Assembly: GCA_965197285.1 (NCBI GenBank)
Contig: OZ240092.1
Coordinates: 3,947,337-4,011,336 of the forward strand
Reading direction: 5' to 3'
From: Acidobacteriota bacterium
GTDB lineage: Bacteria; Acidobacteriota; UBA6911; RPQK01; CBDAPI01
DNA: 64,000 bases
In this document: piece by piece, positions 43,940 through 64,000 of the stretch
Layout of the letters: every line of letters begins with the position of its first letter
Numbering within the stretch: the stretch's first letter is position 1
Program-made: the position numbers and the translations under genes
The notes under the pieces: generated by a model
The model's database searches: none
Seen by the model: the letters and a program-made list of their open reading frames with translations, nothing else
Told to the model about the DNA's origin: nothing

Positions 43940-43990
43940 AACGGGTCCAAGTTGAATGTTAGGATTTTCGGTTTTAGGAAGGAGGCAAGG

Positions 43991-45162: not shown

Positions 45163-45191
45163 AGAGTGGACTCGTTCCTGGGGGCAGGTCA

Positions 45192-46966: not shown

Positions 46967-47749
46967 TCAGACCAGATCGACGATCAGCTTGCGCGTGCGG
47001 GAGTGAACCACTGCACCCAGGAGGCACGCACCGAGGGCCACTACGATCAGGTAAAGGAGTCCTGCCGGTGAAGGTGCGGCCTGCCCGAAAAAAACGTAGC
47101 GGTGCAGGGCGATCAGGTGGGTGAGGGGGTTCAGATCCAGGATCCAGGCCAGGCTTCCCGCTCGCGAATGCGGGTACACGATTGGTGTCGTCCAGAAAAG
47201 GATGAGGAAAACTGCGCCCAGGGCCTGAGCCACGTCCCGCACCAGAACAGTCGCACAGGCCAGAATCAGCGAAAGGCCGAATGCCAGAGTCAGTTGCAAC
47301 AAGCCGGCAAGAGGCCAGATGCACAGTGTCACCAGGCTGAGTTCCTGCTTGAACGTCAGGACCGCTACGAATAGAAGAGTTCCCACACACTGGTGAACAA
47401 AAGCCGATGTAATGATTCCCAGGGGCAGAGCAGGAAGAGGAAAACGAGCCCTGGTGATCAGCTGCCCGTGATCGAGAAAGGAGCGGGCCGATCGATTGAG
47501 GCTTTCCTGGAAGGCCAGCCAGGGAAGTAAAGCCGCAAAAAGAAAAAGGGCGAATCGCCCGCTGGACGCGCTCTCATCAAAGCTCTGCCCCAGGAAGCCG
47601 GAAAAGACCAGTGTGTAGACGGTCAACTGCAGCAGCGGATTGAGGATCGACCAGGCTCCTCCCAGCAGCGAGCCCCGGTAGCGACTCTTCACGTCCCGCC
47701 GCACCAGCTCTCCTACCAGGTACCTGTTTCTCCAGAGATCCGTCACCAT
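46967..47749 (-). CDS. ABC-2 type polysaccharide/O-antigen export permease (Wzm/KpsM-like); no cognate ATPase gene adjacent
   Basis: 6-TM ABC-2 architecture; start taken at MVTDLWRNRYLVGELVRRDVKSRYRGS, typical of Wzm. Confidence 0.7.
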   Translation of the reverse strand: MVTDLWRNRYLVGELVRRDVKSRYRGSLLGGAWSILNPLLQLTVYTLVFSGFLGQSFDESASSGRFALFLFAALLPWLAFQESLNRSARSFLDHGQLITRARFPLPALPLGIITSAFVHQCVGTLLFVAVLTFKQELSLVTLCIWPLAGLLQLTLAFGLSLILACATVLVRDVAQALGAVFLILFWTTPIVYPHSRAGSLAWILDLNPLTHLIALHRYVFFGQAAPSPAGLLYLIVVALGACLLGAVVHSRTRKLIVDLV

Positions 47750-47795
47750 TTGTTGCAGCCAGCCTCGCGCAGCCGCGAGGAGTATACTATAGGCC

Positions 47796-49613
47796 TTGGC
47801 TGCGCAGGAGCCCCAGTTCCGAATAGCTCGATCTCTCGTCCTCTTGATTTTCGGGCTTCTGCCCCTGGTGGTTTCCGTCGCGGGCCTGGACAAATTCCGC
47901 ACGCCGAAAGACATCGTGATCACCTCGGCGATTCCTCTCCTGGCAGTCATCTGTCTGGCCGGTTCCTCATTCAGAATCCGTTTGGGCGTCTTCGAGTGTA
48001 CGGTTCTTGGGGCCGCGGTCTACGTTCTGATTCACGGATTTTATCAGGGTGGAATGGAAGCTGCGGTCACGCTCTGCCTGTTCGCGCTGTGGCTGCTGCT
48101 CCTGTCCCGGCTCCTGTCCTGGCGGTTTCAGAAGCGTGTCTGGCTGGTGGCGGCGCTTTCTCTCAGTCTCAACTGCGTGGCCAATGTTGTGCAGTATTTT
48201 GGGATGTTTCCGTGGATGCTGCGAGATGGCGGAAAGGCCATGTCGGGCCGGGTGACGCCGGCAGGCCTGCTCGGGGAAGTCGGCACCGGAGCGATCCTTT
48301 TCGGCATGATCGTCCTGATGTCCATTTACTTTCTCCTCTTCGAGCGGAATCGGTCGCTTCGAGTCGGCTGGCTGTTGGTCTCCCTGTTCAACCTGGTGGG
48401 CCTGCTGCTCACGCGTACGATGACGGCAAGTCTGGCGCTGACAGGATGCCTCCTTCTGTGGCTGGGCTTTCACCACTGGTGGGTCGTCAAACGCCACCCT
48501 CAATCGCGTCGCCGGCTGGCAGCTCTATGGGCTGTTATCGTGGTGGGAGGGGGGTTGGCTGCCGCCTTTGCAGTTCAGTCGGAACTCTGGGACCGCGTCT
48601 CGCGAGCCGCCCGCCAGGCGATGAGCGGAAGCCTGGAAGTGGCCACGGCGGGGCGCTACTCCGTGTATCTGATCACGTGGGACATGATCAAGGACCGGCC
48701 GCTGGCGGGTCGCGGACTCACGTCCTTCGCACCAGCCTTTTACCACCAGCGGACCGAGACCGGGTACGGCCGCGAAGTAGCGCTTCTCCCCCAGGCGGGC
48801 GCCTTTCGAGAGGCCCACAACGAGTACCTGCAAACCTGGGCCGAACTCGGGTTGCCGGGCTTGCTCTTACTCACCGGGCTGCTGGGTTTCTCTCTATTCT
48901 CTGCACTTCGCCTGTCTTTCAGGGAAACCGATCCGCAACGATGCTATTGGGCCGGAATCCTTGCCCTGGCCCTGATCTATTTTCTCATCGCTTCGCTGAC
49001 CATGTTTCCTCTTCATGTCAGCTCCACCGCGATCTTTGTCTGTTTGATCGTGGCGTCCATTCGACATCTCGATCGCTACGGGTTCGAGGAAAACGGTACC
49101 CCTTCAACCGAAGGAGGGGGTAGGAGACGAAAGCTGCTGGCGGCCGTCGCGCTGATCCTGTCCCTGCCCCTGCTTTACGGGCAGTACCAGAAATGGCAGG
49201 CGAACAATTCACTTGGCATGGCGGCGTTCTTGCTGGAGGGGGCCAGCCGGCAGAATCTCAACACCCGGCAACTCCGAACCGTAGCGACGCGGGCGCTGGC
49301 TCTGCTGGATCGTCCCGAGTCGAGTCGCGCCTGGTTTCCGGAGCTTCATAGCCTGCGAGGTTCGGCCGCCATGTTTCTGGGCCGCTACCGGATGGCAGAG
49401 GCATCCTACCGGAAGGCTATAGTCAGGATTCCAAGTCCTGAAACGATGACCAACCTGGCGGCGGCTCTGATTGCCCAGAACGAATGCGAGAAGGCCGAGC
49501 CTTTTCTCCAGTCGGCCCTCCGCTACAATCCGGGGTACCGCGAGGCCGGCCAGGCCCGCCAATACTGTCGCCGCCAGAAACGGCGAAGCACGGGGCCGAA
49601 AAAGGAGCCATGA
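47796..49613 (+). CDS. O-antigen ligase/polymerase-family membrane protein (Wzy_C) with C-terminal TPR domain
   Basis: multi-TM with RGLTSFAPAFYHQ...AHNEYLQTWAELGLPG Wzy_C loop; C-terminal TPR-like helices. Confidence 0.7.
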   Translation: MAAQEPQFRIARSLVLLIFGLLPLVVSVAGLDKFRTPKDIVITSAIPLLAVICLAGSSFRIRLGVFECTVLGAAVYVLIHGFYQGGMEAAVTLCLFALWLLLLSRLLSWRFQKRVWLVAALSLSLNCVANVVQYFGMFPWMLRDGGKAMSGRVTPAGLLGEVGTGAILFGMIVLMSIYFLLFERNRSLRVGWLLVSLFNLVGLLLTRTMTASLALTGCLLLWLGFHHWWVVKRHPQSRRRLAALWAVIVVGGGLAAAFAVQSELWDRVSRAARQAMSGSLEVATAGRYSVYLITWDMIKDRPLAGRGLTSFAPAFYHQRTETGYGREVALLPQAGAFREAHNEYLQTWAELGLPGLLLLTGLLGFSLFSALRLSFRETDPQRCYWAGILALALIYFLIASLTMFPLHVSSTAIFVCLIVASIRHLDRYGFEENGTPSTEGGGRRRKLLAAVALILSLPLLYGQYQKWQANNSLGMAAFLLEGASRQNLNTRQLRTVATRALALLDRPESSRAWFPELHSLRGSAAMFLGRYRMAEASYRKAIVRIPSPETMTNLAAALIAQNECEKAEPFLQSALRYNPGYREAGQARQYCRRQKRRSTGPKKEP

Positions 49614-49643: not shown

Positions 49644-50612
49644 AGGATTGGAATCGACGCCCGCTCCCTGCGTTGGGGACCGGCAGGTGTTGCTACTTAC
49701 GTCTCCAATCTCCTGCAATTCCTTCCCTGGCTCGACGCTCTGGAATCCTCCAGGCCGGTGAACAACCTGCTCTTCAACTGCGTGCGGGTGCCTCTGGCCG
49801 CGTGGCGCCGCCGATGGCAGGTGTGCCACGCTCCCTCCTACACCTGTCCACTCGTCAGTCCTTGTCCGATCGTCATGACCGTTCACGACATCTCCTATCT
49901 GGCCCACCCCGAGTGGTATCCATACAAGCGAGGGGTCGCGCGACAGGCCTACTACCGGGCCTGTCTGCGGCGGGCGGATCGAATCGTGGTTCCTTCACGG
50001 TTTTCGGAACAGGAGATTGTGGACCGTTTTCCGGGCCTGGAGGGACGGATCCGGATCGTTCCGATGGGGGTGTCCGAGTTCTTCTCGCCCGCCCCCGACC
50101 TGGCCCGTGAAGTCTGTCGAGAGCTGAATCTTCCCTCCCGGTTCATTCTGCACGTGGGGGATCTGCATGTGCGTCGCAATCTGTGGCTGCTTCAGCGGGC
50201 GGCCGAGCAGGTGGGTTTGCCACTCGTCCTGGTTGGAAGACCCCTGGAAGAGGGTTCGATTCCCGACGGAGCTCTGCTCTTCACTGACATTTCAATGGAC
50301 AGGCTCAAAGGGATCTACTCTGCCGCAGCCGTTTTTGCCTACCCGTCCCTGTACGAGGGATTCGGTCTGCCGGTCCTGGAGGCGATGGCCTGTGGGGTTC
50401 CGGTTGTGGCCTCCGACCGGGGCTCCCTTCCCGAGGTTTGCGGCCAGGCCGCCGAACTGGTGGAGCCCGACCAGGACGGCCTGGTTGCCGGCATAGAAAG
50501 AGCGCTGGGAAATGGTGAAGTCCTCCGCAAGAGAGGTCTGGTGCGAGCCTCGGGTTTTTCCTGGGAGCAAACGGCGGCTGCGACGCTGGAAGTGTACCGT
50601 GAACTCATGTGA
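49644..50612 (+). CDS. GT4-family glycosyltransferase; the N-terminal Rossmann domain is in frame from 49614 but lacks a canonical start codon
   Basis: RIGIDARSLRWGPAGVATYVSNLL typical GT4 N-terminus upstream of the listed ATG 49758; C-terminal EGFGLPVLEAMACGVPVV motif. Confidence 0.7.
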   Translation, partial: RIGIDARSLRWGPAGVATYVSNLLQFLPWLDALESSRPVNNLLFNCVRVPLAAWRRRWQVCHAPSYTCPLVSPCPIVMTVHDISYLAHPEWYPYKRGVARQAYYRACLRRADRIVVPSRFSEQEIVDRFPGLEGRIRIVPMGVSEFFSPAPDLAREVCRELNLPSRFILHVGDLHVRRNLWLLQRAAEQVGLPLVLVGRPLEEGSIPDGALLFTDISMDRLKGIYSAAAVFAYPSLYEGFGLPVLEAMACGVPVVASDRGSLPEVCGQAAELVEPDQDGLVAGIERALGNGEVLRKRGLVRASGFSWEQTAAATLEVYRELM

Positions 50613-50819
50613 GCCCAACCGGCTGGCACAACAGGCCCCTGCGAGACGGACCGCTATCAGCGCTTCGAGGCCACACGGCGCGTGACCTTGCCCCCTAAAA
50701 CGGGTCCAAGTTGAATGTTAGGATTTTCGGTTTTAGGAAGGAGGCAAGGATGGCACGGAAGCGGTTTACGGCAGAACAAATCATCATGAAGCTGCGTGAG
50801 GCAGAGGCAGGTCTAGCCC

Positions 50820-52552
50820 GCATAGATCACCGATTTGGAAATGAAGGTGATTTTGGCAGGCCGGAACGGTTTTCTGAGAGTTTCGCTATCGATCCGGTCC
50901 AGGTCGAGTGATGCGGTGGTGTGGAGGGTCGTGAATGGAGCGTTTTTCGGGCTCGGAAGAGGGTGACGGAACGGATTCAGGCAGAGCTCGGCCTGAGCGA
51001 TGGAACGATTTCGTTTTTGGGGCGTTTGATCGGGACAGACCTCAGCAGCGCAGAGGAATGGCCTGGAGGTTTCGAACGACGGCAGCGAAGACCTCGCTGT
51101 AGGGATAGGCTTCCGACATGGAGATCCAGACGTGGCGGACCGTGAGGCGGACCTGGGCGCCGATCTTGAGGAGCTTCAAGCGAATCGTCTGACACTGAGC
51201 GCGAGCCAGGGGGGTCTGCTTCAGTCCGAGACGACGCAAGGCGTGCATGAGCATGTAGGCGGCGGAGGACAGATACAGCCGGAGTTGATTGGCGCGCATC
51301 GTTGCCGCGCTGGTCCGGTCGGCGAACAGATCCAACTGCTGTTCTTTTATGCGGTTCTCCATGTCGCCCCGCGCACAGTAGAAGTCTTCGTAGAGCGCGC
51401 GGGCCCCCAGGCGTTCCGGCGACAGGGAGGTGACGATGAATCGGGGATTGGCGCCTTTCTCCAGGAACTCGGCCTTGCCGACGACGCGTCGCTCCGAGGT
51501 CCAACTGTGGCGAGTCCGGTAGCGGAAATCCTGGAACACCCGCGCCGGTCGCCCGGTGGCGTTGAACTCGGCTTCGGCCTGAGTCATCGCTTCGGCGATC
51601 TCTGACTTGAGCCGATCATTGTTGGCCAACCCCATCACGTAATCCACGTGATGGTCTTCACACCAGCGGAGCAAGTCATCCCGGCAAAAGCCAGAGTCGG
51701 CCCGGATGACGATCGAGACCTCCGGCCAGCTCTGCCGAATCCGGCCGACGATCCGTTCCAGTTCCTCCGCCGATCCCGCGGCCCCATCGATATTGGAACA
51801 CCGCAACCGGGCGCACAGCAGATGCTCCCCCGAGAAGATGTACAGCGGGAGATAACAGTAGTGGCGGTAGTAACCGTGAAAGAACCGGCCTTCCTGCTGG
51901 CCATGGATCGGGTCGTCGGTCGCATCCAGATCCAGCACGATCTCCTCGGGCGCCGATTCGTGGGACTCCACGAAGGCATCCACCATCCAGCCGTCGATCC
52001 GGTCCGGGTCCATCGCGATCTTCTTGTACCGCTCCTGCTCATCGACCTCGGCGCCGGTCAACTCCAACCGGTTCAGCGTACACCTGCCCGCCAGCGCCTT
52101 CCCCCGATCTGAGGCCTGCCGCCGCCGCTCCCCCAACGGATCGGCCTTATTCACCGCCACCGCCAGCATCGGATCGGTGCGCAACTGATCATGATCGTTC
52201 AGATCCTCGTACCCCAGACAGAGTCCGTAGATGCGCTGCCCCAACAACTCCTCGACCGTGTGTTCGATCAACCGCGGATCCCGGTGATCCCTGAAGCACG
52301 CGGTCAGTCCGGCAACGAGACCCGTCCGCTGCTCGACCTCGCGTAACAGCAGCACCCCTGCATCGGAGGTGATCTTCCCGCCGTCGAACCGCGCCTTCAC
52401 TTTGCGTTGAAATAGTCCGTGAAATTCGAACCTGGCTTGTTTACACTCTGTTCTCATAAGGGCCGCCTCCGTTTGGCTTTGAAGTCTTTCATTCAAAACG
52501 CTTTATACCAAACAGGGCGGCCTTTTGAGGTCCTATCGGTGAGAAATGGCGG
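50820..52552 (-). mobile_element. IS1380-family insertion sequence, copy b (a different member from copy a), nested inside IS3 copy 2
   Basis: IRs GCATAGATCACCGAT / rc CCGCCATTTCTCACCGAT; target CTAGCCC present on both sides (TSD 4-7 bp, exact ends ambiguous). Confidence 0.65.
51042..52496 (-). CDS. IS1380-family DDE transposase
   Basis: FDGGKITSDAGVLLL, LDLDATDDPIHGQQE, FHGYY, ADSGF, YCARGDMENRIKE signatures. Confidence 0.9.
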   Translation of the reverse strand: MNERLQSQTEAALMRTECKQARFEFHGLFQRKVKARFDGGKITSDAGVLLLREVEQRTGLVAGLTACFRDHRDPRLIEHTVEELLGQRIYGLCLGYEDLNDHDQLRTDPMLAVAVNKADPLGERRRQASDRGKALAGRCTLNRLELTGAEVDEQERYKKIAMDPDRIDGWMVDAFVESHESAPEEIVLDLDATDDPIHGQQEGRFFHGYYRHYCYLPLYIFSGEHLLCARLRCSNIDGAAGSAEELERIVGRIRQSWPEVSIVIRADSGFCRDDLLRWCEDHHVDYVMGLANNDRLKSEIAEAMTQAEAEFNATGRPARVFQDFRYRTRHSWTSERRVVGKAEFLEKGANPRFIVTSLSPERLGARALYEDFYCARGDMENRIKEQQLDLFADRTSAATMRANQLRLYLSSAAYMLMHALRRLGLKQTPLARAQCQTIRLKLLKIGAQVRLTVRHVWISMSEAYPYSEVFAAVVRNLQAIPLRC

Positions 52553-53661
52553 CTAGCCCAAGGACAGACGGTGGGCCAGGTGTGCAAACAGATTGGGGTG
52601 ACCGAGCAGACCTACTACCGGTGGCGCAAGGAGTACGGAGGGCTTCGACTGAATCAGGCCAAGCGGTTGAAGGTGTTGGAGAAGGAGAATGCCCGGTTGA
52701 AGAAGCTAGTGGCAGATCTGTCTTTGGACAAGCAGATCCTAAAGGAAGTTTCCTCGGGAAACTTCTAGGCCCGGCGAAGAGGAGACGCGCAGTGGTGTGG
52801 GTGAGGGAGAGATTGGGAGCAGAGCGCGTCTCCGAACGTCGGGCCTGCCAAGTGCTGGGACAGGCTCGATCGACCCAGCGAAGGGAAAGGCATATCCCCG
52901 ATGATGAGGCTCGATTGGTGGCTGAGATGGTGGAGTTGGCCACGCACTACGGGCGATACGGCTACCGACGGATCACGGCCATGCTTCGTTGGGAAGGGTG
53001 GAAAGTGAATCACAAGCGGGTGGAGAGGTTGTGGAGACAGGAGGGGCTGAAAGTCCCGTCCAGACAGCCGAAACGAAGGAGACTGTGGCTTCATGATGGA
53101 TCCTGCGTTCGGTTACGAGCGGCTCACAAGGATCACGTCTGGAGCTATGACTTCGTGCATGAGCGAACCCATGACGGAAGGGCCTTTCGATTATTAACCC
53201 TACTGGATGAATACACCCGGGAGTGTCTGGCCATTGAGGTTCAACGACAGATGAATCACCAGGACGTGTTGGATCGATTGGCGGAGTTGTTCGTGGATCG
53301 GGGAGTGCCTGAATACATTCGGTCCGATAACGGGTCGGAGTTTACGGCTCAGGCGGTTCGGGACTGGCTGAAGGCTGTTGGGGTGAGGACCTTATACATC
53401 GAGCCCGGCAGCCCCTGGGAGAATGGATATGTGGAGAGCTTCAACGGAAAACTGCGGGATGAACTGCTGAACGTAGAAGTCTTCGACACGTTGTGGGAAG
53501 CGAAGGTGTTGGCCGAGAGATGGCGCAGGGAGTACAACCAGCGACGGCCTCACAGCGCCTTGGCCTATCGGCCGCCGGCGCCGGAGGCCAGATTACCCAG
53601 GTCCCAGGCCCAGAGTTCTATACCATGGAGTGGACTTCAAATGGTCCCAGGTCTAACTTAG
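52546..53661 (+). CDS. IS3-family transposase OrfB (copy 2)
   Basis: near-identical to 44083-45162. Confidence 0.8.
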
Positions 53662-53687
53662 AGAGTGGACTCGTTCCTGGGGGCAGG

Positions 53688-54557
53688 TCAGCGACTGCCT
53701 CCGAGCTTCTGTCGAAACCGCCGGGCCGCATGCGCCAGGTCGATTCCGGCCAGCACCAGGCGGGTCTGGAGCGGGTGGGCCCTGGGAGCGTAGTGTTTGG
53801 CATGGAAGATCTTCATGGCGTCAAAAAAATGCCTGGTGTTCACCGCCGTGTCCTGGTCTGAGCTGCGACTCTTCAGGTGGGTAACTGTGGCCCCGGCATA
53901 GTACTCCACCAGCCAGCCCGCCTGGAGGGCCCGATAGCAGAAATCCAGGTCCTCGCCATAGAGGAAAAACCCTTCATCCAGGAGCCCGATCTTCTCGGTC
54001 AGTTCTCGGCGAAACATCAGAAACGAACCGGAGACCGCTTCCACCGGCTGCGTCTTGTTTTCGTCCAGAGAGGTCAGGTTGTAGGCTCCGAACTCCCGAC
54101 TGCGGGGAAACAGTCGGCTCAGCCCGAGAAAGCGATAGATCGAATTTCGGACCGTGGGTATGGAGCGCTGGCAGGCCAGCTGGAGACTCCCGTCGGGATT
54201 CAGGATCCGGCATCCCACTACACCCGTCTGCGGGCGGCTCCGAAGGTAGTCCAGGGTCTTCTCGATGGCGTTGTCGTGAATGATAACGTCCGGATTCAGG
54301 AGCAGGAAAAAGGGGGCAGTAGCGTGACGGATTCCACGATTGCAGGCTTTGGCAAACCCCTCGTTGTGCCGATTGAGGAGAAGCACGGGTGAAGAACAGC
54401 GGAGTTCGTTTTCCAGCCGGGACTGGTCAGAGGAAGCGTTGTCCACGACAACCACTTGGATCTGGTCTTCTTGATTCGCCCTTCGTATGCCGGACAGACA
54501 CTGAAGAAGGTCGGCAGTCGAGTTGTAGTTCACGATGATGACGGATAGTTGCATCAC
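53688..54557 (-). CDS. GT2-family glycosyltransferase; its stop codon is supplied by the IS3 terminal TCA (last about 6 native codons replaced)
   Basis: VIIVNYNSTADLLQCL...VVDNASSD GT2 N-terminus; reconstructing the pre-insertion sequence gives ...LGGSRRVASKR*. Confidence 0.8.
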   Translation of the reverse strand: MMQLSVIIVNYNSTADLLQCLSGIRRANQEDQIQVVVVDNASSDQSRLENELRCSSPVLLLNRHNEGFAKACNRGIRHATAPFFLLLNPDVIIHDNAIEKTLDYLRSRPQTGVVGCRILNPDGSLQLACQRSIPTVRNSIYRFLGLSRLFPRSREFGAYNLTSLDENKTQPVEAVSGSFLMFRRELTEKIGLLDEGFFLYGEDLDFCYRALQAGWLVEYYAGATVTHLKSRSSDQDTAVNTRHFFDAMKIFHAKHYAPRAHPLQTRLVLAGIDLAHAARRFRQKLGGSR

Positions 54558-55528: not shown

Positions 55529-55580
55529 GACCGTATATTATAATTTAGCGGCAGTGGCTGCGGGCGGATTGGGAGAAAAA

Positions 55581-57047
55581 ATGAAAGCGGGTCAAGCGAG
55601 TATGGCGGCTGGTGTCCGCACGGTCCCTGCCGGAGCGAATGGGACTCTCGACTCGGTTGTCTCCAATCGGCTCTTTCTCGTCTTAGTCGATCTGTCGATC
55701 GGGTGCCTGGCCTATCTCGCGGCTTGGCTGGTTCGCATTCACCTTCACATCCCCTTTACCCAGGAGCTGATCGGCCAGACGCGATGGCTGGTGGTCAGTC
55801 ATCCCTGGATCATGCTGGTCTTCACCCAGCTCTTCTTTCCCTATCTGATGGGCCTGTACGATGACCTCCGGCAGGTACGAAAACGGGAGCTGGTAACGGT
55901 TACGTTCATCGCCTGTGTCATGCAGGTGTCGCTGGTCACGTCGACCCTGTTTTTCCTGAATCCTCAGACGCCGGGAGAGACGGAAGGGCTCTTCCCCAGG
56001 ACCGTCATCGTCCTTTTCGGCGGCTTCAACCTGGTCGGCCTTCTTGCCTGGCGGGCGTACCTGCGAAGTCGAGTCAGAAAGCGGACGCGCCGCATTCTGG
56101 TGGTGGGGAGACGTTACGGCCATGCCAGCGAACTGCTGGAGAATGTGGCCCGGAGCCCGGGGGGCGAGATCGTCGGACTCGTCCTGGAGCGTCCTGATAC
56201 CGGCCCAGAGGGTGGCTCGAAGTATCCGGTGCTGGGAGACGTTTCCAACGTCGGCGAGATTGTTGATCATTTCGGGGTAGACGAAATCGTCTTTTGCTCA
56301 GCTCCATCCTGGCGCGATCGGGTACTGAACCGTTTGTGCCAGTTGCAGGAGGAATCGCGGGTAAACATCGGGATTCACCCCTCGCCATTCGACATCACGA
56401 TCGGAAAGCTGAGGCATATCAACATCCACGATACTCCCCTGATTGAAGTCAAGGAGAACCCCAACGAACCTTTCGAACGGTTCCTGAAACGCGCTTTTGA
56501 TCTGACTGTTGCCAGTGCTGCATTGATTCTCACTGCACCTCTTATGCTTGTGATTGGCGGACTGGTCAGGCTCACTTCCAAAGGGCCGGCTTTCTATGTC
56601 CAGGAGCGGGTAGGGCAGCATGGAGCCCCTTTCCGCCTATTCAAATTTCGGACCATGGTCGTCCACGCGGAAAAAGCGTCCGGCGTCACCCTGGCGGTTC
56701 CCAACGACCCTCGTGTCACCCGTTTTGGACGCATCCTGCGCCGCTCCCGGCTGGATGAACTGCCTCAGATCTGGAATGTGATCAGAGGTGATATGAGCTT
56801 CGTTGGTCCTCGCCCCGAGCGTCCCTATTTTGTGGGTGACTTTGAAAAAAGCGTGCCGGGCTATGCAGAGCGACACAGGGTGAAACCCGGGATGACAGGC
56901 CTGGCCCAGGTTCGCAGTTTCTACGACACTCGGCCGGAGAGCAAGCTCAAATACGATCTTGCGTACATCTACAACTACAGTCTGTCACTCGATCTTCTGA
57001 TTCTGCTCGAGACCCTGAAAGTGATCCTCACCCGCCGGGGAAGTTAG
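55581..57047 (+). CDS. polyprenyl-phosphate hexose-1-phosphate transferase (WbaP/EpsB-like priming sugar transferase)
   Basis: N-terminal TM block plus C-terminal bacterial sugar transferase domain (KRAFDLTVAS...RLFKFRTM...DELPQIWNVIRGDMSFVGPRPERP). Confidence 0.85.
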   Translation: MKAGQASMAAGVRTVPAGANGTLDSVVSNRLFLVLVDLSIGCLAYLAAWLVRIHLHIPFTQELIGQTRWLVVSHPWIMLVFTQLFFPYLMGLYDDLRQVRKRELVTVTFIACVMQVSLVTSTLFFLNPQTPGETEGLFPRTVIVLFGGFNLVGLLAWRAYLRSRVRKRTRRILVVGRRYGHASELLENVARSPGGEIVGLVLERPDTGPEGGSKYPVLGDVSNVGEIVDHFGVDEIVFCSAPSWRDRVLNRLCQLQEESRVNIGIHPSPFDITIGKLRHINIHDTPLIEVKENPNEPFERFLKRAFDLTVASAALILTAPLMLVIGGLVRLTSKGPAFYVQERVGQHGAPFRLFKFRTMVVHAEKASGVTLAVPNDPRVTRFGRILRRSRLDELPQIWNVIRGDMSFVGPRPERPYFVGDFEKSVPGYAERHRVKPGMTGLAQVRSFYDTRPESKLKYDLAYIYNYSLSLDLLILLETLKVILTRRGS

Positions 57048-57062
57048 CGTTCCACCTTCCAA

Positions 57063-57183
57063 GAGTGGGAGGAGGCCTCCTCAGGGCCGCGACCGCCGGG
57101 CTGTGTCAAGAAAGAGTGGGCAGGGCCCCGGGGCAGCGACCGTTTAAATACCCCCGGGAGTCGCCACGGGGCCCTGCCCACTC
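57063..57183. repeat. GC-rich palindromic REP-like element, composite: partial A-type arm plus complete B-type 70-bp palindrome with TTTAAA centre
   Basis: GAGTGGGAGGAGGCCTCCTCAGGGCCGCG... then GAGTGGGCAGGGCCCCGGGGCAGCGACCGTTTAAATACCCCCGGGAGTCGCCACGGGGCCCTGCCCACTC. Confidence 0.7.
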
Positions 57184-57194: not shown

Positions 57195-58169
57195 TCAGGC
57201 TTCCGACCCGCCAGCCGCATGGTGCCTGACGACACTCTGGATAGTCCGGTCCAGGTCATAGGACGGTGAAAACCTGATCGCCTCGCGCAGTTTTCGCAAA
57301 TCGGGGACGCGCCGCCGCATGTCCTCGAAGCCGGGCGCGTAGGCTTCTTCGTAAGGAATGAAGCTGATTCGAGACGAGCTGTTTGTCCTCTCGATCACCC
57401 GGTCGGCCAGTTCCTTGATGGTGACCTCTTCATTAGAGCCGACATTGTAGACCTCCCCGGCGGTTTGCTCCTTCATCAGAAGGTCAATGAGGGCACCCAC
57501 TGCATCCCTAACGTGGCAGAAACACCGCGACTGGCTCCCGTCGCCGAACACAGTGAGCGGTCTGTTGGCCATGGCCTGGCGGACGAAGTTGGGCAGCACC
57601 ATCCCGTAGCGTCCCACCTGGCGGGGTCCAACCGTATTGAAGAGGCGCACGATGGTCACGGGAACGCGTCTCTCCGTCCAGTAGGCCAGGCCCAGGAACT
57701 CGTCGATCGCCTTACTGCAGGCGTAGCTCCAGCGGGTCCGGTTGGTGGGTCCAAGGACGAGATCATCGTCCTCGGAAAACGGTATCTTGGCACTCTTGCC
57801 ATACACCTCGGAGGTGGAGGCAAGCAGGACTCTCTTCCTGTCCCTTTCTGCCAGTTCCAGCACCGCCTCGGTTCCCTTGACGTTGGTTTCAATGGTGCCG
57901 ACAGGATCACTGACGATCAGCTGAACCCCGACAGCGGCCGCCAGATGGACTACAGCATCACAGTCCTTCATCATCCGGGACAGGAGGGTGGCGTTGAGCA
58001 CGGTATCGACCTCGAGCCGAAAGGAGGGATGTTGCAGGAGCGGCTGCACGTTTTCCAGCCGACCCGTGGAGAGATCGTCCACTACGTCGACGAGATGACC
58101 CTTCCCCAGCAGTTCTTCAGCAACGTGCGACCCGATAAAACCGGCACCGCCGGTGACCAGAACTCTCAT
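57195..58169 (-). CDS. NAD-dependent nucleotide-sugar epimerase/dehydratase (SDR family)
   Basis: VLVTGGAGFIGSHV Rossmann motif and YACSK catalytic motif. Confidence 0.85.
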   Translation of the reverse strand: MRVLVTGGAGFIGSHVAEELLGKGHLVDVVDDLSTGRLENVQPLLQHPSFRLEVDTVLNATLLSRMMKDCDAVVHLAAAVGVQLIVSDPVGTIETNVKGTEAVLELAERDRKRVLLASTSEVYGKSAKIPFSEDDDLVLGPTNRTRWSYACSKAIDEFLGLAYWTERRVPVTIVRLFNTVGPRQVGRYGMVLPNFVRQAMANRPLTVFGDGSQSRCFCHVRDAVGALIDLLMKEQTAGEVYNVGSNEEVTIKELADRVIERTNSSSRISFIPYEEAYAPGFEDMRRRVPDLRKLREAIRFSPSYDLDRTIQSVVRHHAAGGSEA

Positions 58170-58254
58170 GGGACTTCTACCCTTCTACTTCACGCCGGTT
58201 TCCCGCTCAAGGAAGTTCCCCGCCGGATGGTATAATCTCGGCCCCTGCGGGGTG

Positions 58255-59188
58255 ATGAAGAGAATATCTGTAGTTGTACCCTTATTCAATGAAAAGGACT
58301 CCCTGGATCAGCTCTATGCTGAACTGGTCGAAGTGGCGCAACAGCTCCCCTACGAATTCGAGTTCCTCTTCGTTGACGACGGGAGTACCGACGGGTCCAG
58401 CCAGGCCCTGCGGCGACTCTTCCGATCTGATTCCCGCCTGCAGGTCATTCGTTTTCGGCGCAACTTCGGAAAGTCGGCGGCCTTGTCGGCGGGCTTTTCG
58501 CTGGCACGTGGTGATGTTATTGTCACATTGGACGCGGATCTTCAGGACAAACCGGCCGAAATAGGGAAAGCTGCTGACACGGCTCGAAGAGGGCTACGAT
58601 CTGGTATCCGGCTGGAAGCGGGTACGCCGGGACCCGCTCACCAAGCGATGGCCCTCCTGGCTCTTCAATCTTGCGACCTCCGTGTTGACCGGGGTGCCGC
58701 TGCACGACATCAATTGTGGGTTCAAAGCCTACCGGAGGGAAGTCATCAAAGAGGTCCGGGTCTATGGGGAGATGCACCGGTTTATTCCGGTGCTGGCCAG
58801 TTATCGAGGATTTCGGGTCGGCGAGGTCTGGGTGGAACATCGCTCGCGCGTCTATGGATCCAGCAAGTTCGGTGCCGGGCGCTTCGTCAGTGGCTTTTTC
58901 GATCTGCTGACCGTGATCATGCTGACCCGTTATAACAGCAAGCCGCTGCACGTTTTCGGGGTGCTCGGGGTACTGTCGTTCGCGGCCGGCTTCGCCATCG
59001 AGGTGTACCTGTCCGTAGGCTGGTTCCTGGGTCGCTGGATTGGGGACAGGCCCCTTTTCTTTCTGGGCATCGTCCTTCTTCTGGGGGGGGTCCAATTTGT
59101 CTTTTTCGGCCTGCTGGCTGAGATGATTGCCTACTCCGCGCGCAGACAAGACGAGTACTCCATTCAGGAACTCCTTCGGGCCGAGTAA
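58255..59188 (+). pseudogene. GtrB/ArnC-like polyprenyl-phosphate glycosyltransferase (GT2 plus C-terminal TM helices) with a +1 frameshift near 58565-58570
   Basis: MKRISVVVPLFNE...DADLQDKPAEI in one frame; the expected continuation KLLTRLEEGYDLVSGWKRVRRDPLTKRWPSWLFNLATSVLTGVPLHDINCGFKAY is in the next frame, then TM helices; indel in GGGAAAG. Confidence 0.65.
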
Positions 59189-59195
59189 GTATTCA

Positions 59196-60386
59196 ATGAG
59201 GATCGCGCTGATCGGTCCAACCCATCCGTTCAGGGGCGGGATCGCACACTACACGACCTGCCTCAACGAGGAGCTCCGGCGGCACCACGAGACCCTACTG
59301 ATTTCGTTTTCCAGGCAGTATCCCGAACTACTGTTCCCAGGTCGGACGCAGGAGGATTCGAGTTCACGCTATCTGTCGACTCCGTCAGAGCCCATTTTGA
59401 ATCCCTTTTCCCCGCGGAGCTGGCGTGCCGTAGCCAGGCGTCTCAGACAATTCTCTCCCAGAGCCGTGGTCTTTCAGTGGTGGCACCCGTACTTCGGTCC
59501 GGGCTACTCGTCTATCATGAGACGCGTCAACCGAGACCGGCACATCGATCAACTCTTCCTTTGCCACAATGTCTTCCCCCACGAGATACCCCGGTTCCCC
59601 GGCTCATCGTGGCTGGTAAGACGAGTGATTTCCCGGGCTTTTCGGAGAGTCGACGGGTTTCTTGTCCATTCAGCGGGATTGTCGCGTCAGGTGAAAGCGT
59701 TGAATCCGGGAACTGTAGTTCATCGAATCCTGCACCCTTCCTACGACTTCTTCAACCGACTCGACAATGGCAGTAAAACGTCGGTCGGGCCCAGAGAAAC
59801 AAATGAGTTACGGTTGCTTTTCTTTGGGAAGATTCGAGCCTACAAAGGCCTGGAGGTGTTTCTGAGAGCTCTTGCCCGGCTCGCCGGCAGGGTGGACTTT
59901 CGAGCTACCGTAGCAGGCGAATTCTACATCGACGAATCGCCCTTTAAGCGTATGGCTGAGGACGAGGGCATCTCGGACCGCGTGGTCTGGCACGATCGCT
60001 ACATCCCCAACGAAGAGGTCGGACCGCTCTTTCGTGAGACGGATCTGGTCGTACTGCCGTATCTGGAGGCCACCCAGAGCGGTGTAGTGCCCCTGGCCTT
60101 TCATTTCCTCAAGCCGGTCGTTGTGAGCGATGTGGGCGGGCTGGCCGAGGTCGTTACGGATGGCGAAAGCGGATACCTGGTTCCCCCCGGTGATCCGGAT
60201 GCCCTGGCTGACGCCATCGTGCGCTTCCAGAGAGACCTGCAAGGCACGTCGTTCGAGCCCCACATCCGCCGGGCCCGGGAGAGGCTTTCCTGGGGACAGG
60301 TCGCTGACGGACTCCGAGCCCTGCTTGATTCCTTGCGTTCACGGCAATTGGAACGGCGGGACATCAATCATGGCGGGGAGCACTAA
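59196..60386 (+). CDS. GT4-family glycosyltransferase
   Basis: MRIALIGPTHPFRGGIAHYT N-terminus; C-terminal LPYLEATQSGV (E-x7-E-like) region. Confidence 0.8.
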   Translation: MRIALIGPTHPFRGGIAHYTTCLNEELRRHHETLLISFSRQYPELLFPGRTQEDSSSRYLSTPSEPILNPFSPRSWRAVARRLRQFSPRAVVFQWWHPYFGPGYSSIMRRVNRDRHIDQLFLCHNVFPHEIPRFPGSSWLVRRVISRAFRRVDGFLVHSAGLSRQVKALNPGTVVHRILHPSYDFFNRLDNGSKTSVGPRETNELRLLFFGKIRAYKGLEVFLRALARLAGRVDFRATVAGEFYIDESPFKRMAEDEGISDRVVWHDRYIPNEEVGPLFRETDLVVLPYLEATQSGVVPLAFHFLKPVVVSDVGGLAEVVTDGESGYLVPPGDPDALADAIVRFQRDLQGTSFEPHIRRARERLSWGQVADGLRALLDSLRSRQLERRDINHGGEH

Positions 60387-62571
60387 GGTGGCAGAAGCAA
60401 CCCGGGGGCGACACTCGACGCGCACTCGGGTCACCCTCTTGTGCCTCCTGCTGGCTGCCGTCGTCCTGTCTGCTGGTTCCAATACGCTCCACCATGGCTT
60501 CGTCTTCGACGACGTCACCCTGATTCAGCAGAACACGGACGTGACGGAGTTGAACTGGGGGAGGATCCTGGGCAGAACCGGCTATCGGCCGATTCGCACC
60601 CTCACCTACGCGCTGAATTTCGCCTTGGGAGGCACGAATCCTTTCGGCTACCACCTCTTCAACGTTCTGCTGCACGCGGCCAACGCGATCCTGACCTTCT
60701 TTTTGTTTCGCCACCTGCTGGGAAGGCTGGACGTGTCGTTTCTGGGCGCGATGCTTTTTGCAGTGCACCCCGTGCAGACGGCGTCGGTTGCCTATGTTTC
60801 GGGTCGCAAGGACCTGCTGGCGGCGTTCTTCCTGCTTCTGGCCGCACTTCTGTATGTAGGGTGGAGGCGGCGGGGAGGCCGGGTGAGGGCGGCGTTCACA
60901 GGCCTGTCTCTTGCTCTGGCTGTTCTTTCCAAGGAGGTGGCGGTCGTATTCCCGGCTCTCCTCGTGCTCATCGATTTTTTCGGGGCACCTGAGGGACGGC
61001 GGCACCGGGACGGCAAGAGTTTGAAGGAAGCGCTCAAGAAATCCGCACGGCTTTACATTTTGCTGGCCACAGTCGCTCTTGCAGCTGCTTACTATACGGT
61101 CGTCTGGACCGAGGCCAGCCGTATGGCCGGCTACTGGGGAGGGAGCCTGACCGCCCAGTGGGCCACGTCTTTCAAGCTCTTTGTCCACTATCTGAGGCTG
61201 GCCTTCGTGCCCTACCCCCTGCTGGCCGACTACACCGGCGTGTTCCCGGTTTCCACCGGTTTCACAGAACCGGCTACCGTCTTGTGCGTGCTCGTTTTTG
61301 CCGCCTATCTGGGACTGGCGCTGAGGTTGTGCCGTCGCTATCCACTGGTCACCCTCGGAATGGGATGGTTCCTGGTTCCTTTGCTCCCCGTACTTCAAGT
61401 CGTGGGCTTCCATGAGATCGCGGCCGATCATTTCCTCTACTTGCCGATGATCGGGGCCAGCCTGATCTTCGGCCATCTCGGTGCTCTGGCTGGCTCTTCT
61501 CGAAACACCAATGTTCTGGCCTGGGCGTTCCTGCTGATCGTGTTTGCGGTTTGCTCGATCCTTACCGTTTCCCGCAACCGGGTGTGGGCCAGCCAGCAGA
61601 CGCTGTGGGAAGACACCTATGAGAAAGCCCCGGGATCCTACCGGGCCAACGCCAACCTGGGGCAACTCTACTGGGCCCGCTTCGAGCAGGACCCGATGCG
61701 GAACTCCCAGCTCCGCGCACGGGCGATTCGGCTGCTGGAGCGGGCGGCCGAACTCGACCCCACCGACTCGCTGCCGCTGTCCAACCTGGGTGCGATCTAC
61801 CGTGAATGGGGATGGAACGAGTGGAAGAAGGGCAACCAGGAAGTTGCGGAGGCGCGGGAAAGGCGTGCCCTAGGCTATCTGTCTCGAGCCGTCTCGCTCG
61901 ATCCCGAGGACGTCTGGGCGTATAGCAACCTCGGAGATGTTCGCAAGGATCTGGGCCTGATCTGGTCGCGGCGGGCGAATCCCATCCAGGCCGAGACGGA
62001 AAGGCGGCTGGCGATCGAGGCCTACGAGAAGGCGATCTCTCTGGGTTCCCCCAATCCCCGATTTCCTCTGGTTTACTTCAAGCTAGCCATGGTCAAGGTC
62101 GATCAGAGACGGTTCGCTGAGGCTGTGCCCTGGCTGAAGAGATCAGTGAGGGCGCCCGGTCTGGCCAAAATGTGGGAGCTTCCCTATTGGATGGGATACT
62201 GCTATCTGGCTACGGGGAGGGTCTCTGCTGCCATTCCCCATCTGCGCCGAACGGTAGATCTGCGGCCCTACCCCGCCGGGCTGCGCCTCCTTGCCTACGC
62301 CCTGGAAGGCGTCGGGGAAGCGGAGGAAGCGATAGCCCTCTACGGCCAGGCCCTGCGACAGAATCCGCAATCTTTCGAGACTCATTATCTACTGGGTGCG
62401 GCTCTTCAGGGGCAGGGGAGGACGGATCTGGCCAGACAACACCTCTTGCGTGCCCTTCAACTCGTGGAGGGGCAGCCTCGGACGCCATCAACCAACGCGT
62501 TTCGTAGGGGTATCAAGCGACAGTTGGAAGAAGGTCGGAACGAGGACATGGCCCCCGATCCAGGCAAGTAG
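60370..62571 (+). CDS. TMTC/PMT-like GT-C membrane protein (DUF1736-type) with C-terminal TPR repeats
   Basis: start overlaps the GT4 stop; about 10 TM helices with FVFDDV...YRPIRTLTYALNF...YHLFNVLLHAAN loop, then TPR-like helices. Confidence 0.65.
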   Translation: MAGSTKVAEATRGRHSTRTRVTLLCLLLAAVVLSAGSNTLHHGFVFDDVTLIQQNTDVTELNWGRILGRTGYRPIRTLTYALNFALGGTNPFGYHLFNVLLHAANAILTFFLFRHLLGRLDVSFLGAMLFAVHPVQTASVAYVSGRKDLLAAFFLLLAALLYVGWRRRGGRVRAAFTGLSLALAVLSKEVAVVFPALLVLIDFFGAPEGRRHRDGKSLKEALKKSARLYILLATVALAAAYYTVVWTEASRMAGYWGGSLTAQWATSFKLFVHYLRLAFVPYPLLADYTGVFPVSTGFTEPATVLCVLVFAAYLGLALRLCRRYPLVTLGMGWFLVPLLPVLQVVGFHEIAADHFLYLPMIGASLIFGHLGALAGSSRNTNVLAWAFLLIVFAVCSILTVSRNRVWASQQTLWEDTYEKAPGSYRANANLGQLYWARFEQDPMRNSQLRARAIRLLERAAELDPTDSLPLSNLGAIYREWGWNEWKKGNQEVAEARERRALGYLSRAVSLDPEDVWAYSNLGDVRKDLGLIWSRRANPIQAETERRLAIEAYEKAISLGSPNPRFPLVYFKLAMVKVDQRRFAEAVPWLKRSVRAPGLAKMWELPYWMGYCYLATGRVSAAIPHLRRTVDLRPYPAGLRLLAYALEGVGEAEEAIALYGQALRQNPQSFETHYLLGAALQGQGRTDLARQHLLRALQLVEGQPRTPSTNAFRRGIKRQLEEGRNEDMAPDPGK

Positions 62572-62590
62572 GTACTAGAGGATTCGAGCT

Positions 62591-63265
62591 GTGTACGGCA
62601 AATACAAGGTAACCATTGTAATTCCCTGTCTCAACGAAGAGTCGGGCATTCGACAGGTTCTGGCCAGAATGCCCCAGTTCGTCGACGAGACCATTGTCGT
62701 CGACAACGGTTCTACGGACTCAACCGCCGAGATCGCCCATAAGATGGGTGCCCGCGTGATTCGCGAGGAGATTCGAGGCTACGGGCGGGCCTACCGGACG
62801 GGTTTGCTGCACGCGGCTGGGGATATCATCGTTACGCTGGACGGAGATCATTCCTACCCGGTGGATGCTGTTTCCTATCTGATCGAAGCGTTACTGGACT
62901 CCGGCGTGGGGTTCGTTTCGGCATCCAGGTTCCCGGTCCAGGATCGTGAGTCGATGTCGCTCACCAGCCTGGTGGGCAATATCTTCTTGAGCACGGTGAT
63001 GTCGGTCCTCTACCTGCGGAGGATTCGAGACTCCCAGTCGGGCATGTGGATCTTTTTCCGCAAGAGCCTCGAGCAGATGAACCTGACGAGCGACGGAATG
63101 GCCTTTTCGGAGGAAATCAAGATCGAGGCCCTGACGAACCCCGAGATCGGCTTGAAGGAAATACCCATCCGCTTTTCCAACCGCGAGGGCGAGAAAAAGT
63201 TGCAGCCCTGGCATGACGGTTGGAATAATCTTTTCTTTCTGATCAAGAAAAGGTTTCTTGGATAA
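62591..63265 (+). CDS. GT2 polyprenyl-phosphate sugar synthase (DPM1/DPG-synthase-like, soluble)
   Basis: VTIVIPCLNEESGI...VVDNGSTDST...VTLDGDHSYP GT2 DxD region. Confidence 0.8.
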   Translation: MYGKYKVTIVIPCLNEESGIRQVLARMPQFVDETIVVDNGSTDSTAEIAHKMGARVIREEIRGYGRAYRTGLLHAAGDIIVTLDGDHSYPVDAVSYLIEALLDSGVGFVSASRFPVQDRESMSLTSLVGNIFLSTVMSVLYLRRIRDSQSGMWIFFRKSLEQMNLTSDGMAFSEEIKIEALTNPEIGLKEIPIRFSNREGEKKLQPWHDGWNNLFFLIKKRFLG

Positions 63266-63357
63266 TGGATCGCGAAACGAGTTCTGATGCAGAGGCCGGG
63301 ATCCCTGATCCGTCGTTCTGTAACCGGGTCCCCCGTTGACCTGATGGAATGCGCACC

Positions 63358-64000
63358 ATGGACTGTCCAGTCTGCGAGAACCCCGAGACACGACCATGCT
63401 ATCGGATGACGGACCGTTTTTTCGGGACTACAACCGAAGAGTTCACTCTCAACCGCTGTCCCAGTTGCGGTTTGTTGTTTCTCGAGGAATCTGCAGTTGA
63501 AAAGCAGCTCGGGACCTTCTATCCGCCCGGTTACTGGTGGTCCGAGCAGGGCCCTTCCGGAAAACTGGAGCGTCGCTACCGCGAGTGGATGGTGAGTTCC
63601 GACCAGCTGCGCTTCCTCAGCGGCGTTCTCCAGCCGTTGGGTGGGTTGCGATTACTCGACATCGGTTGTGGCAGCGGAACCTTTGTCAGGCTGGCCCGCC
63701 GGGCGGGAGTCGAGGCGATGGGCCTGGAGCTTTCCCGGGAGGCCGCGGCGATTGCCGAGAGGGAGGCGCCCGGAGCCGTCATGGAAGGCAGCGAGGAGGA
63801 GATTCTGGAACAGGGTCGAGTCTATGATGTGGTCACTCTTTTTCATTCTCTGGAGCACATGACGACGCCCTTTCGATTTCTCAAGAAACTTCGCCGGATC
63901 CTGAAGGAGGAGGGCAGTCTCATCGTCCAGGTCCCGAATGCCGGGAGCCTCCAGGCGCGCGTCTTTGGCTCTCGATGGTATGGCCTGGACTGCCCTCGCC
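63358..64000 (+). CDS. SAM-dependent methyltransferase with N-terminal Cys4 zinc ribbon, 3' partial (runs off window end)
   Basis: frame open from 63358 to the window end; CPVC...CPSCG ribbon; LLDIGCGSGTF motif I. Confidence 0.6.
   Translation, partial: MDCPVCENPETRPCYRMTDRFFGTTTEEFTLNRCPSCGLLFLEESAVEKQLGTFYPPGYWWSEQGPSGKLERRYREWMVSSDQLRFLSGVLQPLGGLRLLDIGCGSGTFVRLARRAGVEAMGLELSREAAAIAEREAPGAVMEGSEEEILEQGRVYDVVTLFHSLEHMTTPFRFLKKLRRILKEEGSLIVQVPNAGSLQARVFGSRWYGLDCPR

Follow-up and report, generated by a model that had tools for sequence, protein, structure and literature searches.

What does a bacterial membrane protein with the fold of a glycosyltransferase (GT) and a tail of tetratricopeptide repeats (TPRs) transfer, from which donor and onto what? 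The question is raised by the 3' end of a 64,000-nucleotide stretch of DNA from an Acidobacteriota bacterium (contig OZ240092.1, positions 3,947,337 to 4,011,336), referred to here as the window, in which such a protein is encoded among genes for relatives of polyprenyl-phosphate sugar synthases. The membrane protein belongs with the animal TMTC proteins, and the genes around it are kept in the same order across much of the phylum. Periplasmic transfer of a sugar that depends on a polyprenyl-phosphate-linked donor is probably what the genes serve. On the acceptor we lean slightly, and tentatively, to serine and threonine residues of exported proteins. An earlier, sequence-only reading of the window had proposed a periplasm-facing GT-C of the TMTC/PMT kind fed by neighboring synthases, as a module for glycosylation and not for polymerization, and this core of its proposal is favored by the homology to TMTCs, the motifs, and the synteny that are described below. 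It had allowed for either proteins or a periplasmic glycan as the acceptor.

A conserved five-gene cassette

Five open reading frames (ORFs), all running in the same direction, are packed tightly at the 3' end of the window. From 58255 to 64000 they form a single co-directional operon, with 7, -17 (an overlap), 19, and 83 nucleotides between successive genes. The sequence-only reading had drawn attention to three of these genes, and the coordinates it gave (58255-59188, 60370-62571, and 62591-63265, all plus-strand ORFs) are correct. The genes and the two domains of the central protein are as follows:

58255-59188, plus strand: a family 2 GT (GT2) of the GtrB/ArnC/DPMS type, that is, a polyprenyl-phosphate glycosyltransferase by its Pfam and PDB matches, with a broken reading frame
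59196-60386, plus strand: a GT4 glycosyltransferase of the GT-B fold, nucleotide-sugar dependent (Glyco_trans_1_4 2.7e-27, Glycos_transf_1 1.4e-21)
60370-62571, plus strand: a 733-residue GT-C membrane/TPR protein, TMTC-like
60370-61584, plus strand: the TMTC-like GT-C catalytic membrane domain of that protein, residues 1-405, with 11 predicted transmembrane segments and a cytoplasmic N-terminus
61594-62571, plus strand: its predicted periplasmic C-terminal TPR domain, residues 409-726, with about 8 TPR-like hairpins
62591-63265, plus strand: a 224-residue soluble GT2 resembling DPM1, AglJ, and PpgS, with a DGD motif (Pfam GT2 2.8e-24)
63349-64000 and past the window end, plus strand: an S-adenosylmethionine-dependent methyltransferase with an N-terminal Cys4 zinc-ribbon-like segment (Methyltransf_23 4.4e-21)

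A scan of the region from 57 to 64 kb for promoters and terminators returned sites no more numerous than in shuffled sequence.

The arrangement was followed through a scan of one genome per species, which gave 78 related loci, nearly all from metagenome-assembled genomes (MAGs) of Acidobacteriota, including Aminicenantes and UBA6911. Counts were restricted to loci with sufficient flanking sequence. With the GT-C gene as the reference (median identity 50%), the neighbors are found as follows:

GtrB-like GT2: about -2.2 kb from the GT-C gene, same strand, 50/60 loci, median identity 66.5%
GT4: about -1.26 kb, same strand, 56/65 loci, median identity 48%
DPM1-like GT2: about +2.1 kb, same strand, 55/63 loci, median identity 72%
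Methyltransferase: about +2.8 kb, same strand, 53/62 loci, median identity 52%

The order GtrB/ArnC-like GT2, GT4, GT-C/TPR, DPM1/AglJ-like GT2, methyltransferase is therefore repeated in around 85% of 60-65 acidobacterial loci, and it persists down to 40% identity in the GT-C; an arrangement that recurs in this way is far beyond chance. Within the cassette, constraint is tightest on the two GT2s, exceeding that on the GT-C itself, and the DPM1-like gene is the most conserved of all. Even in distant relatives from Planctomycetota and Deltaproteobacteria (four loci), a GtrB-like gene adjoins the GT-C gene. Conservation on this scale, across the phylum, would suit a housekeeping system, for an envelope glycan or for glycosylation, better than a strain-variable exopolysaccharide (EPS) locus.

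Some Acidobacteriota harbor a second TMTC-like GT-C/TPR paralog. Four such loci were seen, and one of them (L006) comes from the same MAG as the cassette locus L003. The paralogs, in which the membrane domain is up to 71% identical, are without any of the cassette neighbors, and they may use the second polyprenyl-phosphate-sugar donor.

A TMTC-like membrane domain

Judged by profile comparisons and by a predicted structure, the N-terminal half of the 733-residue protein is clearly a GT-C and is specifically TMTC-like. The comparison was made with six animal TMTC membrane domains (human TMTC1-4, zebrafish TMTC3, and fly TMTC4), which were reconstructed with the help of the alignment in the supplement to PMC7801869. 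A profile built on the acidobacterial transmembrane domain matches human TMTC1-4 with E values of 1e-31 to 1e-37, computed for a nominal database of 1e6 sequences, over positions 25-410 of 434. Reciprocally, the animal TMTC profile matches the window GT-C at 7e-33, and BLASTP aligns residues 27-403 of the latter with the whole membrane domain of TMTC3 at 26% identity. The animal profile leaves positions 239-320 unaligned, which correspond to the loop between transmembrane segments 7 and 8 (the EL4/DUF1736 region).

Modeling leads to the same fold. An AlphaFold2 model of the whole protein, built from 51 homologs, has a mean confidence (pLDDT) of 89.9, and since a Foldseek search with it matched TPR proteins only, a membrane-only model of residues 1-428 (pLDDT 79.5) was made. 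Foldseek with this second model agrees with a GT-C fold. Its best structural neighbors are PMTs, and the top three are all protein-modifying enzymes; the matches also include ALG12, ALG3, and ALG9, which are glycan-acting GT-Cs, and ArnT ranks under PMT and STT3. The TMTC/PMT relationship that had been read from the sequence is thus upheld by reciprocal TMTC profile matches and by alignment to catalytic GT-Cs rather than to non-catalytic TPR membrane proteins.

A Pfam search of the membrane domain at E<=10 returned no match to DUF1736, PMT, or any other family, and among 24 family members PMT_2 is matched in 7/24, PMT in 3/24, and DUF1736 (PF08409) in 0/24, so that the label "DUF1736-like" in the sequence-only reading is not borne out. 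Searches of the PDB by sequence, with the whole protein and with a full-length profile, gave TPR proteins only. With the transmembrane-domain profile there were 0 matches in the entire PDB at E<=10, although PMT, ArnT, and STT3 are present in it. To judge from these searches, a close relative with a solved structure does not exist, and no solved TMTC structure was found in the PDB copy searched.

The second half of the protein is plainly a TPR array. In Pfam it matches TPR_11 at 2e-21, and also TPR_17, TPR_2, and others, and in the PDB it matches the TPR region of OGT (4e-16). The AlphaFold2 model places 16 helices between residues 409 and 726. The description of the protein as a polytopic membrane N-terminal domain with strong C-terminal TPRs, which had been made from the letters of the sequence, holds.

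Motifs and topology

Seven motifs, termed M1 to M7, have been defined in the TMTCs around a modeled dolichyl phosphate mannose (Dol-P-Man) and metal site (PMC7801869, Table 4). All seven have collinear counterparts in the window GT-C, which are invariant or nearly so among the 51 homologs (38-96% identity):

M1, DD: D47 D48 (FVFDD), invariant in the 51 and in 24 sequences; the loop 42-95 is predicted to be periplasmic
M2, SHKSYRP: Y72-R73-P74 (G-Y72-R-P74), without the His-Lys
M3, RxD: R146-K-D148, invariant
M4, KE: K188 E189, invariant
M5, DW: D287 Y288, a variant
M6, PxxP: P337xxP340, invariant apart from P337; sits in transmembrane segment 9
M7, ERxxY: D353-H354-F-L-Y357, a DHxxY variant

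The counterparts of M1, M3, M4, and M6 are collinear with positions 31/32, 143-145, 188/189, and 358-361 of TMTC3. The variants at M2, M5, and M7 align to the TMTC motifs in BLASTP, with differences at key residues. The sequence-only reading had made its proposal depend on the presence of acidic residues in a periplasmic loop, and D47 and D48 provide them.

Hydropathy and the modeled helices together give 11 transmembrane segments, rather than the 10 counted previously, with the N-terminus inside and the TPR domain following the eleventh. Cytoplasmic loops rich in lysine and arginine are found at 1-15, 167-175, and 209-224, in keeping with the positive-inside rule. With this topology all of the motifs other than M6 fall on the predicted periplasmic side, as does the TPR domain.

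These data bear upon the idea that the protein is a non-catalytic TPR membrane scaffold, or that its adjacency to glycosyltransferase genes has no functional meaning. The absence of a Pfam match to any GT-C family in the window protein and the divergence of the EL4/DUF1736 loop would fit with such an idea. It is nevertheless very improbable, given that the seven TMTC motifs keep their acidic and basic residues, invariant or nearly so, in the 51 homologs, that the GT-C fold is predicted with high confidence, and that about 85% of loci keep the synteny, down to 40% identity.

Two candidate donor synthases

The first gene of the cassette encodes a protein that matches Pfam Glycos_transf_2 at 7.9e-36. 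After repair of its reading frame, the product matches ArnC in the PDB at 7e-52 over its full length (residues 2-307), as well as the GtrB protein sll0501 (4e-36) and the DPMS of Pyrococcus furiosus (PfDPMS, 4e-19); in NCBIfam it matches PRK10714 (ArnC) at 2e-55. It has two C-terminal transmembrane segments, near residues 236 and 269, and carries the DxD motif as DADLQ (within TLDADLQD). By these matches the repaired protein is a standard polyprenyl-phosphate glycosyltransferase.

The need for repair arises from a +1 frameshift. The gene is 934 nucleotides long, which is not divisible by 3, and the frame switches after residue 103 owing to one extra A, position 58563 (GAAAT[A]GGGAAAG; the sequence in relatives is GAA ATG GGA AAG), which breaks the gene into the ORFs 58153-58935 and 58682-59188. 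Orthologs in seven related loci are unbroken, at 307-310 residues, and none has the extra A. The identification of a GtrB-like GT2 at 58255-59188 in the sequence-only reading is therefore sound with respect to the enzyme, by its ArnC and GtrB matches and its two transmembrane segments, and unsound with respect to a single intact ORF. Within the conserved coding region, as aligned over 11.5 kb to the relative L001 (97-98% identical), this is the sole uncompensated indel. The extra A may be one isolated mistake of the assembly, or the gene may have been inactivated very recently, which would make it a pseudogene. Generally poor sequence quality was considered as a possible cause: there is only this one uncompensated coding indel against L001, but a gene for fibronectin-type (fn3) repeats elsewhere in the window is also frame-broken.

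The second synthase candidate is the 224-residue soluble GT2 directly downstream of the GT-C, where a DPM1-like gene had been recognized at the outset. In NCBIfam it matches AglJ at 1.5e-36 (126 bits against a cut-off of 325), a haloarchaeal dolichyl-phosphate hexose transferase at 9e-32 (110 bits against 375), and PpgS at 1e-22 (81 bits against 370), and it aligns with the catalytic domain of PfDPMS over residues 4-205 (PDB, 1.8e-11). JGI labels some of its orthologs "dolichol-phosphate hexosyltransferase". On such resemblances it is a reasonable inference that this protein is a candidate polyprenyl-phosphate hexose (sugar) synthase.

A proposed route for the sugar

From these components a pathway can be proposed. 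On the cytoplasmic face of the membrane, a GT2 of the DPMS/GtrB/AglJ kind would take a monosaccharide from a nucleotide sugar and attach it to polyprenyl phosphate. In the window copy this would be the task of the intact 224-residue DPM1-like enzyme, and the relatives also have the GtrB/ArnC-like enzyme with its two transmembrane segments. The lipid-linked sugar would then be flipped across the membrane, and in the periplasm the 11-segment TMTC-type GT-C would use it as a donor. The loop with D47-D48, together with K188-E189, D287, and D353-H354, would form the catalytic and phosphate- or metal-binding site, and the periplasmic TPR domain, with its approximately 8 hairpins, would hold the acceptor. 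The acceptor would be Ser/Thr residues of exported envelope proteins, making the GT-C a protein O-glycosyltransferase in the manner of TMTC or TfpW. The GT4, the methyltransferase, and the supply of UDP-glucuronic acid (UDP-GlcA) may serve a neighboring pathway linked to undecaprenyl diphosphate (Und-PP), or they may elaborate the same glycan.

We lean to a protein acceptor because the GT-C is homologous to TMTCs, because its three best structural neighbors modify proteins, and because its architecture is that of TfpW. Animal TMTC1-4 serve in the O-mannosylation of cadherins (PMC7801869) and protocadherins and belong to CAZy family GT105. Like the window protein they have a GT-C domain of 11 segments and, after it, a TPR domain that faces away from the cytoplasm, with the motif counterparts M1-M7 in the same order and at similar spacing. 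In contrast to the animal proteins, the window protein is bacterial and would work in the periplasm rather than the endoplasmic reticulum (ER), its donor would be a bacterial polyprenyl-phosphate sugar and not Dol-P-Man, and its gene shares an operon with those of candidate donor synthases. Its DUF1736/EL4 loop is unrecognizable, M2 is without His-Lys, M5 reads DY and not DW, and M7 reads DHxxY and not ERxxY.

TfpW of Pseudomonas aeruginosa is a GT-C with 11 transmembrane segments, a DDX motif, and a periplasmic TPR domain that O-glycosylates pilin (bioRxiv 10.1101/2020.04.19.049825). This pilin O-arabinofuranosyltransferase is likened to the window protein by architecture only: both come from bacteria, place the N-terminus in the cytoplasm, are predicted to have 11 transmembrane segments, and carry DD(X) in the first loop on the periplasmic side and a large TPR domain in the periplasm, and the polyprenyl-phosphate-monosaccharide donor that TfpW uses is of the type that the window GT-C would use. 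By analogy, TfpW shows that a GT-C/TPR architecture can glycosylate protein. The genetic settings differ. The tfpW gene is immediately downstream of pilA, which encodes the substrate, and adjoins genes for a D-arabinofuranose precursor, whereas no pilin or DprE-type genes were found here, and the upstream neighbors of the GT-C are instead a GT4 and a GtrB-like gene in about 85% of related loci.

That a polyprenyl-phosphate-sugar synthase should be paired with a GT-C is familiar: the Gtr, Arn, Ppm1/PMT, and PpgS/Rv3779 systems all have such pairs. In the actinobacterial Ppm1/PMT and PpgS/Rv3779 pairs, as is proposed here, the GT-C does its work outside the membrane; PpgS resembles the 224-residue enzyme in being a GT2 that is short and soluble, and PMTs are the best structural matches of the window GT-C. 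Unlike PMT (family GT39), however, the window protein has neither a PMT or PMT_2 Pfam match nor a MIR domain, and has a TPR domain instead; the family profile also misses the PMT sequences of the PDB. A further likeness, in gene content only, is to archaeal Agl N-glycosylation, where the 224-residue GT2 compares with AglJ, the methyltransferase with AglP, and a UDP-glucose dehydrogenase of the locus with AglM (7e-105). These matches lie under the equivalog cut-offs, and the GT-C is TMTC-like rather than of the AglB/STT3 kind.

The surrounding glycan locus and other acceptors

Upstream of the cassette the window harbors further genes for glycan synthesis and export:

46967-47950, minus strand: ABC-2 (Wzm-like) permease
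47796-49613, plus strand: 605-residue protein with Wzy_C (O-antigen ligase/polymerase/PglL-type) and C-terminal TPRs, kept at the same locus in many relatives
49758-50612, plus strand: GT4
50617-53690: nested insertion-sequence (IS) insertion, defined against L001
53688-54557 and 54554-55528, minus strand: two GT2s
55554-57047, plus strand: EPS-type polyprenyl glycosylphosphotransferase (PGT), matching TIGR03025 above its cut-off
57195-58169, minus strand: extended short-chain dehydrogenase/reductase (SDR), an epimerase/dehydratase

The same upstream order is present in eight related loci, L001 among them, and in others. On the far side of the cassette, genes for a UDP-glucose 6-dehydrogenase and a GT2 usually come next, as they do after the methyltransferase in L001 and L002, and in relatives the larger glycan block often abuts tuf-secE-nusG-rplK. 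The Wzy_C-TPR protein is a second TPR-fused membrane glycan enzyme, and it could be the ligase or oligosaccharyltransferase of an Und-PP-linked pathway. The SDR has ambiguous matches, all under cut-offs, to LegB, RmlB, UXS, the C-terminal domain of ArnA, and GalE, and it does not point to one particular sugar.

This setting allows for an ArnT-like route, in which the GtrB/ArnC-like enzyme would make an undecaprenyl-phosphate pentose or uronate from UDP-GlcA, provided by the UDP-glucose dehydrogenase and the SDR, and the GT-C would move the sugar to lipid A, core, or another glycolipid. ArnC is indeed the best match of the GtrB-like protein, a UDP-glucose 6-dehydrogenase is encoded in the locus, and the SDR matches UDP-4-keto-pentose/UDP-xylose synthase (3e-41) as well as the C-terminal domain of ArnA (2.6e-36). 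The matches fall far under the equivalog cut-offs, however (188 against 529 bits), the SDR is closer to LegB and dTDP-glucose dehydratase, and inspection of the cassette showed no ArnB aminotransferase, ArnD, or ArnE/F. ArnT itself is without a TPR domain, scores below PMT and STT3 in the structural comparison, and is not matched in sequence by the family profile. Such a route is improbable.

A Gtr-like decoration of a glycan deserves more weight. Here the GT-C/TPR protein would add a side-branch or terminal sugar, from a polyprenyl-phosphate sugar, to the exported polysaccharide of the locus or to an O-antigen-like glycan, and the TPR domain would bind the polymer or dock onto the Wzy_C-TPR protein or export machinery. 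In the Gtr system GtrA is the flippase, GtrB the undecaprenyl-phosphate-glucose synthase, and a GtrC-type GT-C the transferase, and O-antigen glucosylation works through the pairing of a GtrB-type synthase and a GT-C. The cassette shares with it a GtrB-type GT2 with two C-terminal transmembrane segments near a GT-C, a polysaccharide-locus setting, and a predicted periplasmic reaction. Moreover, the cassette is always within or beside the conserved glycan locus (PGT, Wzm-like permease, Wzy_C-TPR protein, GT2s and GT4s, UDP-glucose dehydrogenase), the glycan-acting ALG12, ALG3, and ALG9 are among the close structural matches, and the polysaccharide machinery of the periplasm often carries TPR domains. 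Against this, the sequence homology is specific to TMTCs and not to GtrC-type or ALG enzymes, the best structural neighbors modify proteins, and the GT-C carries a TPR domain, unlike the GtrC type. No GtrA-type gene was seen in the cassette of the window or in the conserved cassette of relatives, for which no dedicated scan with a GtrA hidden Markov model was made. Besides the GtrB-type enzyme the cassette has another GT2, which is soluble and DPM1-like, together with a GT4 and a methyltransferase, and it is core and conserved across classes of Acidobacteriota, rather than phage-borne or serotype-variable like Gtr and other strain-variable O-antigen modification genes. Glycan decoration of this type is possible, if somewhat doubtful.

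Several observations also weigh against TMTC- or TfpW-style protein O-glycosylation, the reading to which we lean. No pilin or other obvious substrate gene is conserved beside the cassette in the loci of relatives. The polysaccharide-type locus in which the cassette is embedded, with its PGT, Wzm-like permease, Wzy_C protein, and several GT2s and GT4s, is the usual setting for Gtr-like decoration. The TPR domain does not prove a protein acceptor, because periplasmic TPRs are also found on polysaccharide machinery, including the Wzy_C-TPR protein of the same locus. There is no room for a GtrA-type flippase gene, as no unassigned gap of more than 85 nucleotides occurs in 58170-64000. The EL4/DUF1736 loop, which has been proposed to be important for TMTC catalysis, is divergent in the window GT-C. 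With respect to the donor, there are two candidate synthases for one GT-C, a surplus that the proposed route does not explain; the GtrB-like gene is frameshifted in the window copy; and the 224-residue GT2 lies far under the curated cut-offs for AglJ, DPMS, and PpgS (126 against 325 bits), so that its lipid-phosphate acceptor is inferred.

The remainder of the window

A second GT-C gene, at 24769-26541, had been suggested as a further member of the module. The protein does match PMT_2 (4.6e-7), but it has no counterpart in NCBIfam and is missed by the TMTC profile. The gene lies outside the glycan locus and is neighbored by genes for an inositol monophosphatase, a B12-binding radical SAM enzyme (minus strand), a 908-residue UPF0182 membrane protein, an SDF symporter, and transposases. 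Its membership of the module was rejected, in view of a distance of 31 kb, the unrelated genes and IS elements that lie between, and its lack of TMTC character.

The IS insertion in the glycan locus, between the GT4 at 49758-50612 and the GT2 at 53688-54557, amounts to 3.07 kb that is absent from L001. It consists of an IS3-family element (left end 50683-50819, body 52548-53690) that is split by a DDE_Tnp_1_4 element with its transposase at 51042-52496 (minus strand). The IS3 body is 99.6% identical to an intact copy at 43924-45191, and a further site listed with the IS elements of the window is 36543-37880. There are five transposase genes in the 64-kb window, and IS elements appear to be active in the genome. 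A 120-nucleotide segment at 57056-57175, between the stop codon of the PGT gene and the end of the SDR gene, is also absent from L001.

Between 39758 and 43939 there is apparently one large gene for a secreted repeat protein, with fn3 domains and repeated modules of the form CNPSDxNE(L/F)WCAT(L/M)TV. It is read in at least 3 frames (ORFs 39758-40768, 40327-42546, 42081-42971, and 42509-43939), which implies several frameshifts. The gene is flanked by transposases, and the segment at 42-44 kb has a GC content of 70%, compared with around 59% elsewhere. Decay of a pseudogene may account for this, or the region may be prone to errors. Its product, as a beta-sandwich surface protein, would be a conceivable glycosylation substrate.

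Toward the other end of the window, short stretches at 2057-2392 and 3262-3332 are 91-96% identical to L001 15573-15740, which lies just upstream of tuf. No tRNA gene was found in the window by ARAGORN.

A large family of TMTC-like proteins in bacteria

The family to which the GT-C belongs is large. Its transmembrane-domain profile matches 121,964 clusters (50% identity) at E<=1e-3, and 37,856 at E<=1e-30, among 1.84 billion representatives. Existing labels for its members are "protein O-mannosyl-transferase" at JGI and "tetratricopeptide repeat protein" at NCBI. Prokaryotic homologs of the TMTCs are mentioned in passing by Eisenhaber et al. (PMC7801869). A search of the literature found no characterized bacterial TMTC-like enzyme, no account of this cassette, and none of acidobacterial protein O-mannosylation, with TfpW as the sole architectural precedent. 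The advance is one of genomic context and testability, and not a new kind of system.

In animals, from which the TMTCs are known, these enzymes have been associated with brain malformation and with deafness; how they work and recognize their substrates is poorly understood. The cassette offers a genetically simple, ER-free model for the choice of donor and acceptor by a TMTC-type GT-C/TPR enzyme. A bolder proposition, which we regard as rather unlikely as it stands, is that bacteria throughout the phylum have a system of protein O-glycosylation that is run by a TMTC-type enzyme and has the cassette at its core, and that the bacterial family is the prokaryotic stock from which the eukaryotic TMTCs came. 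If this were true, Acidobacteriota would O-glycosylate a set of envelope or secreted proteins that are recognized by the TPR domain, with the sugar provided by the DPM1-like or the GtrB-like synthase. For these abundant soil bacteria, whose cell-surface chemistry is largely uncharted, the cassette points to a conserved, possibly housekeeping, step of envelope glycosylation.

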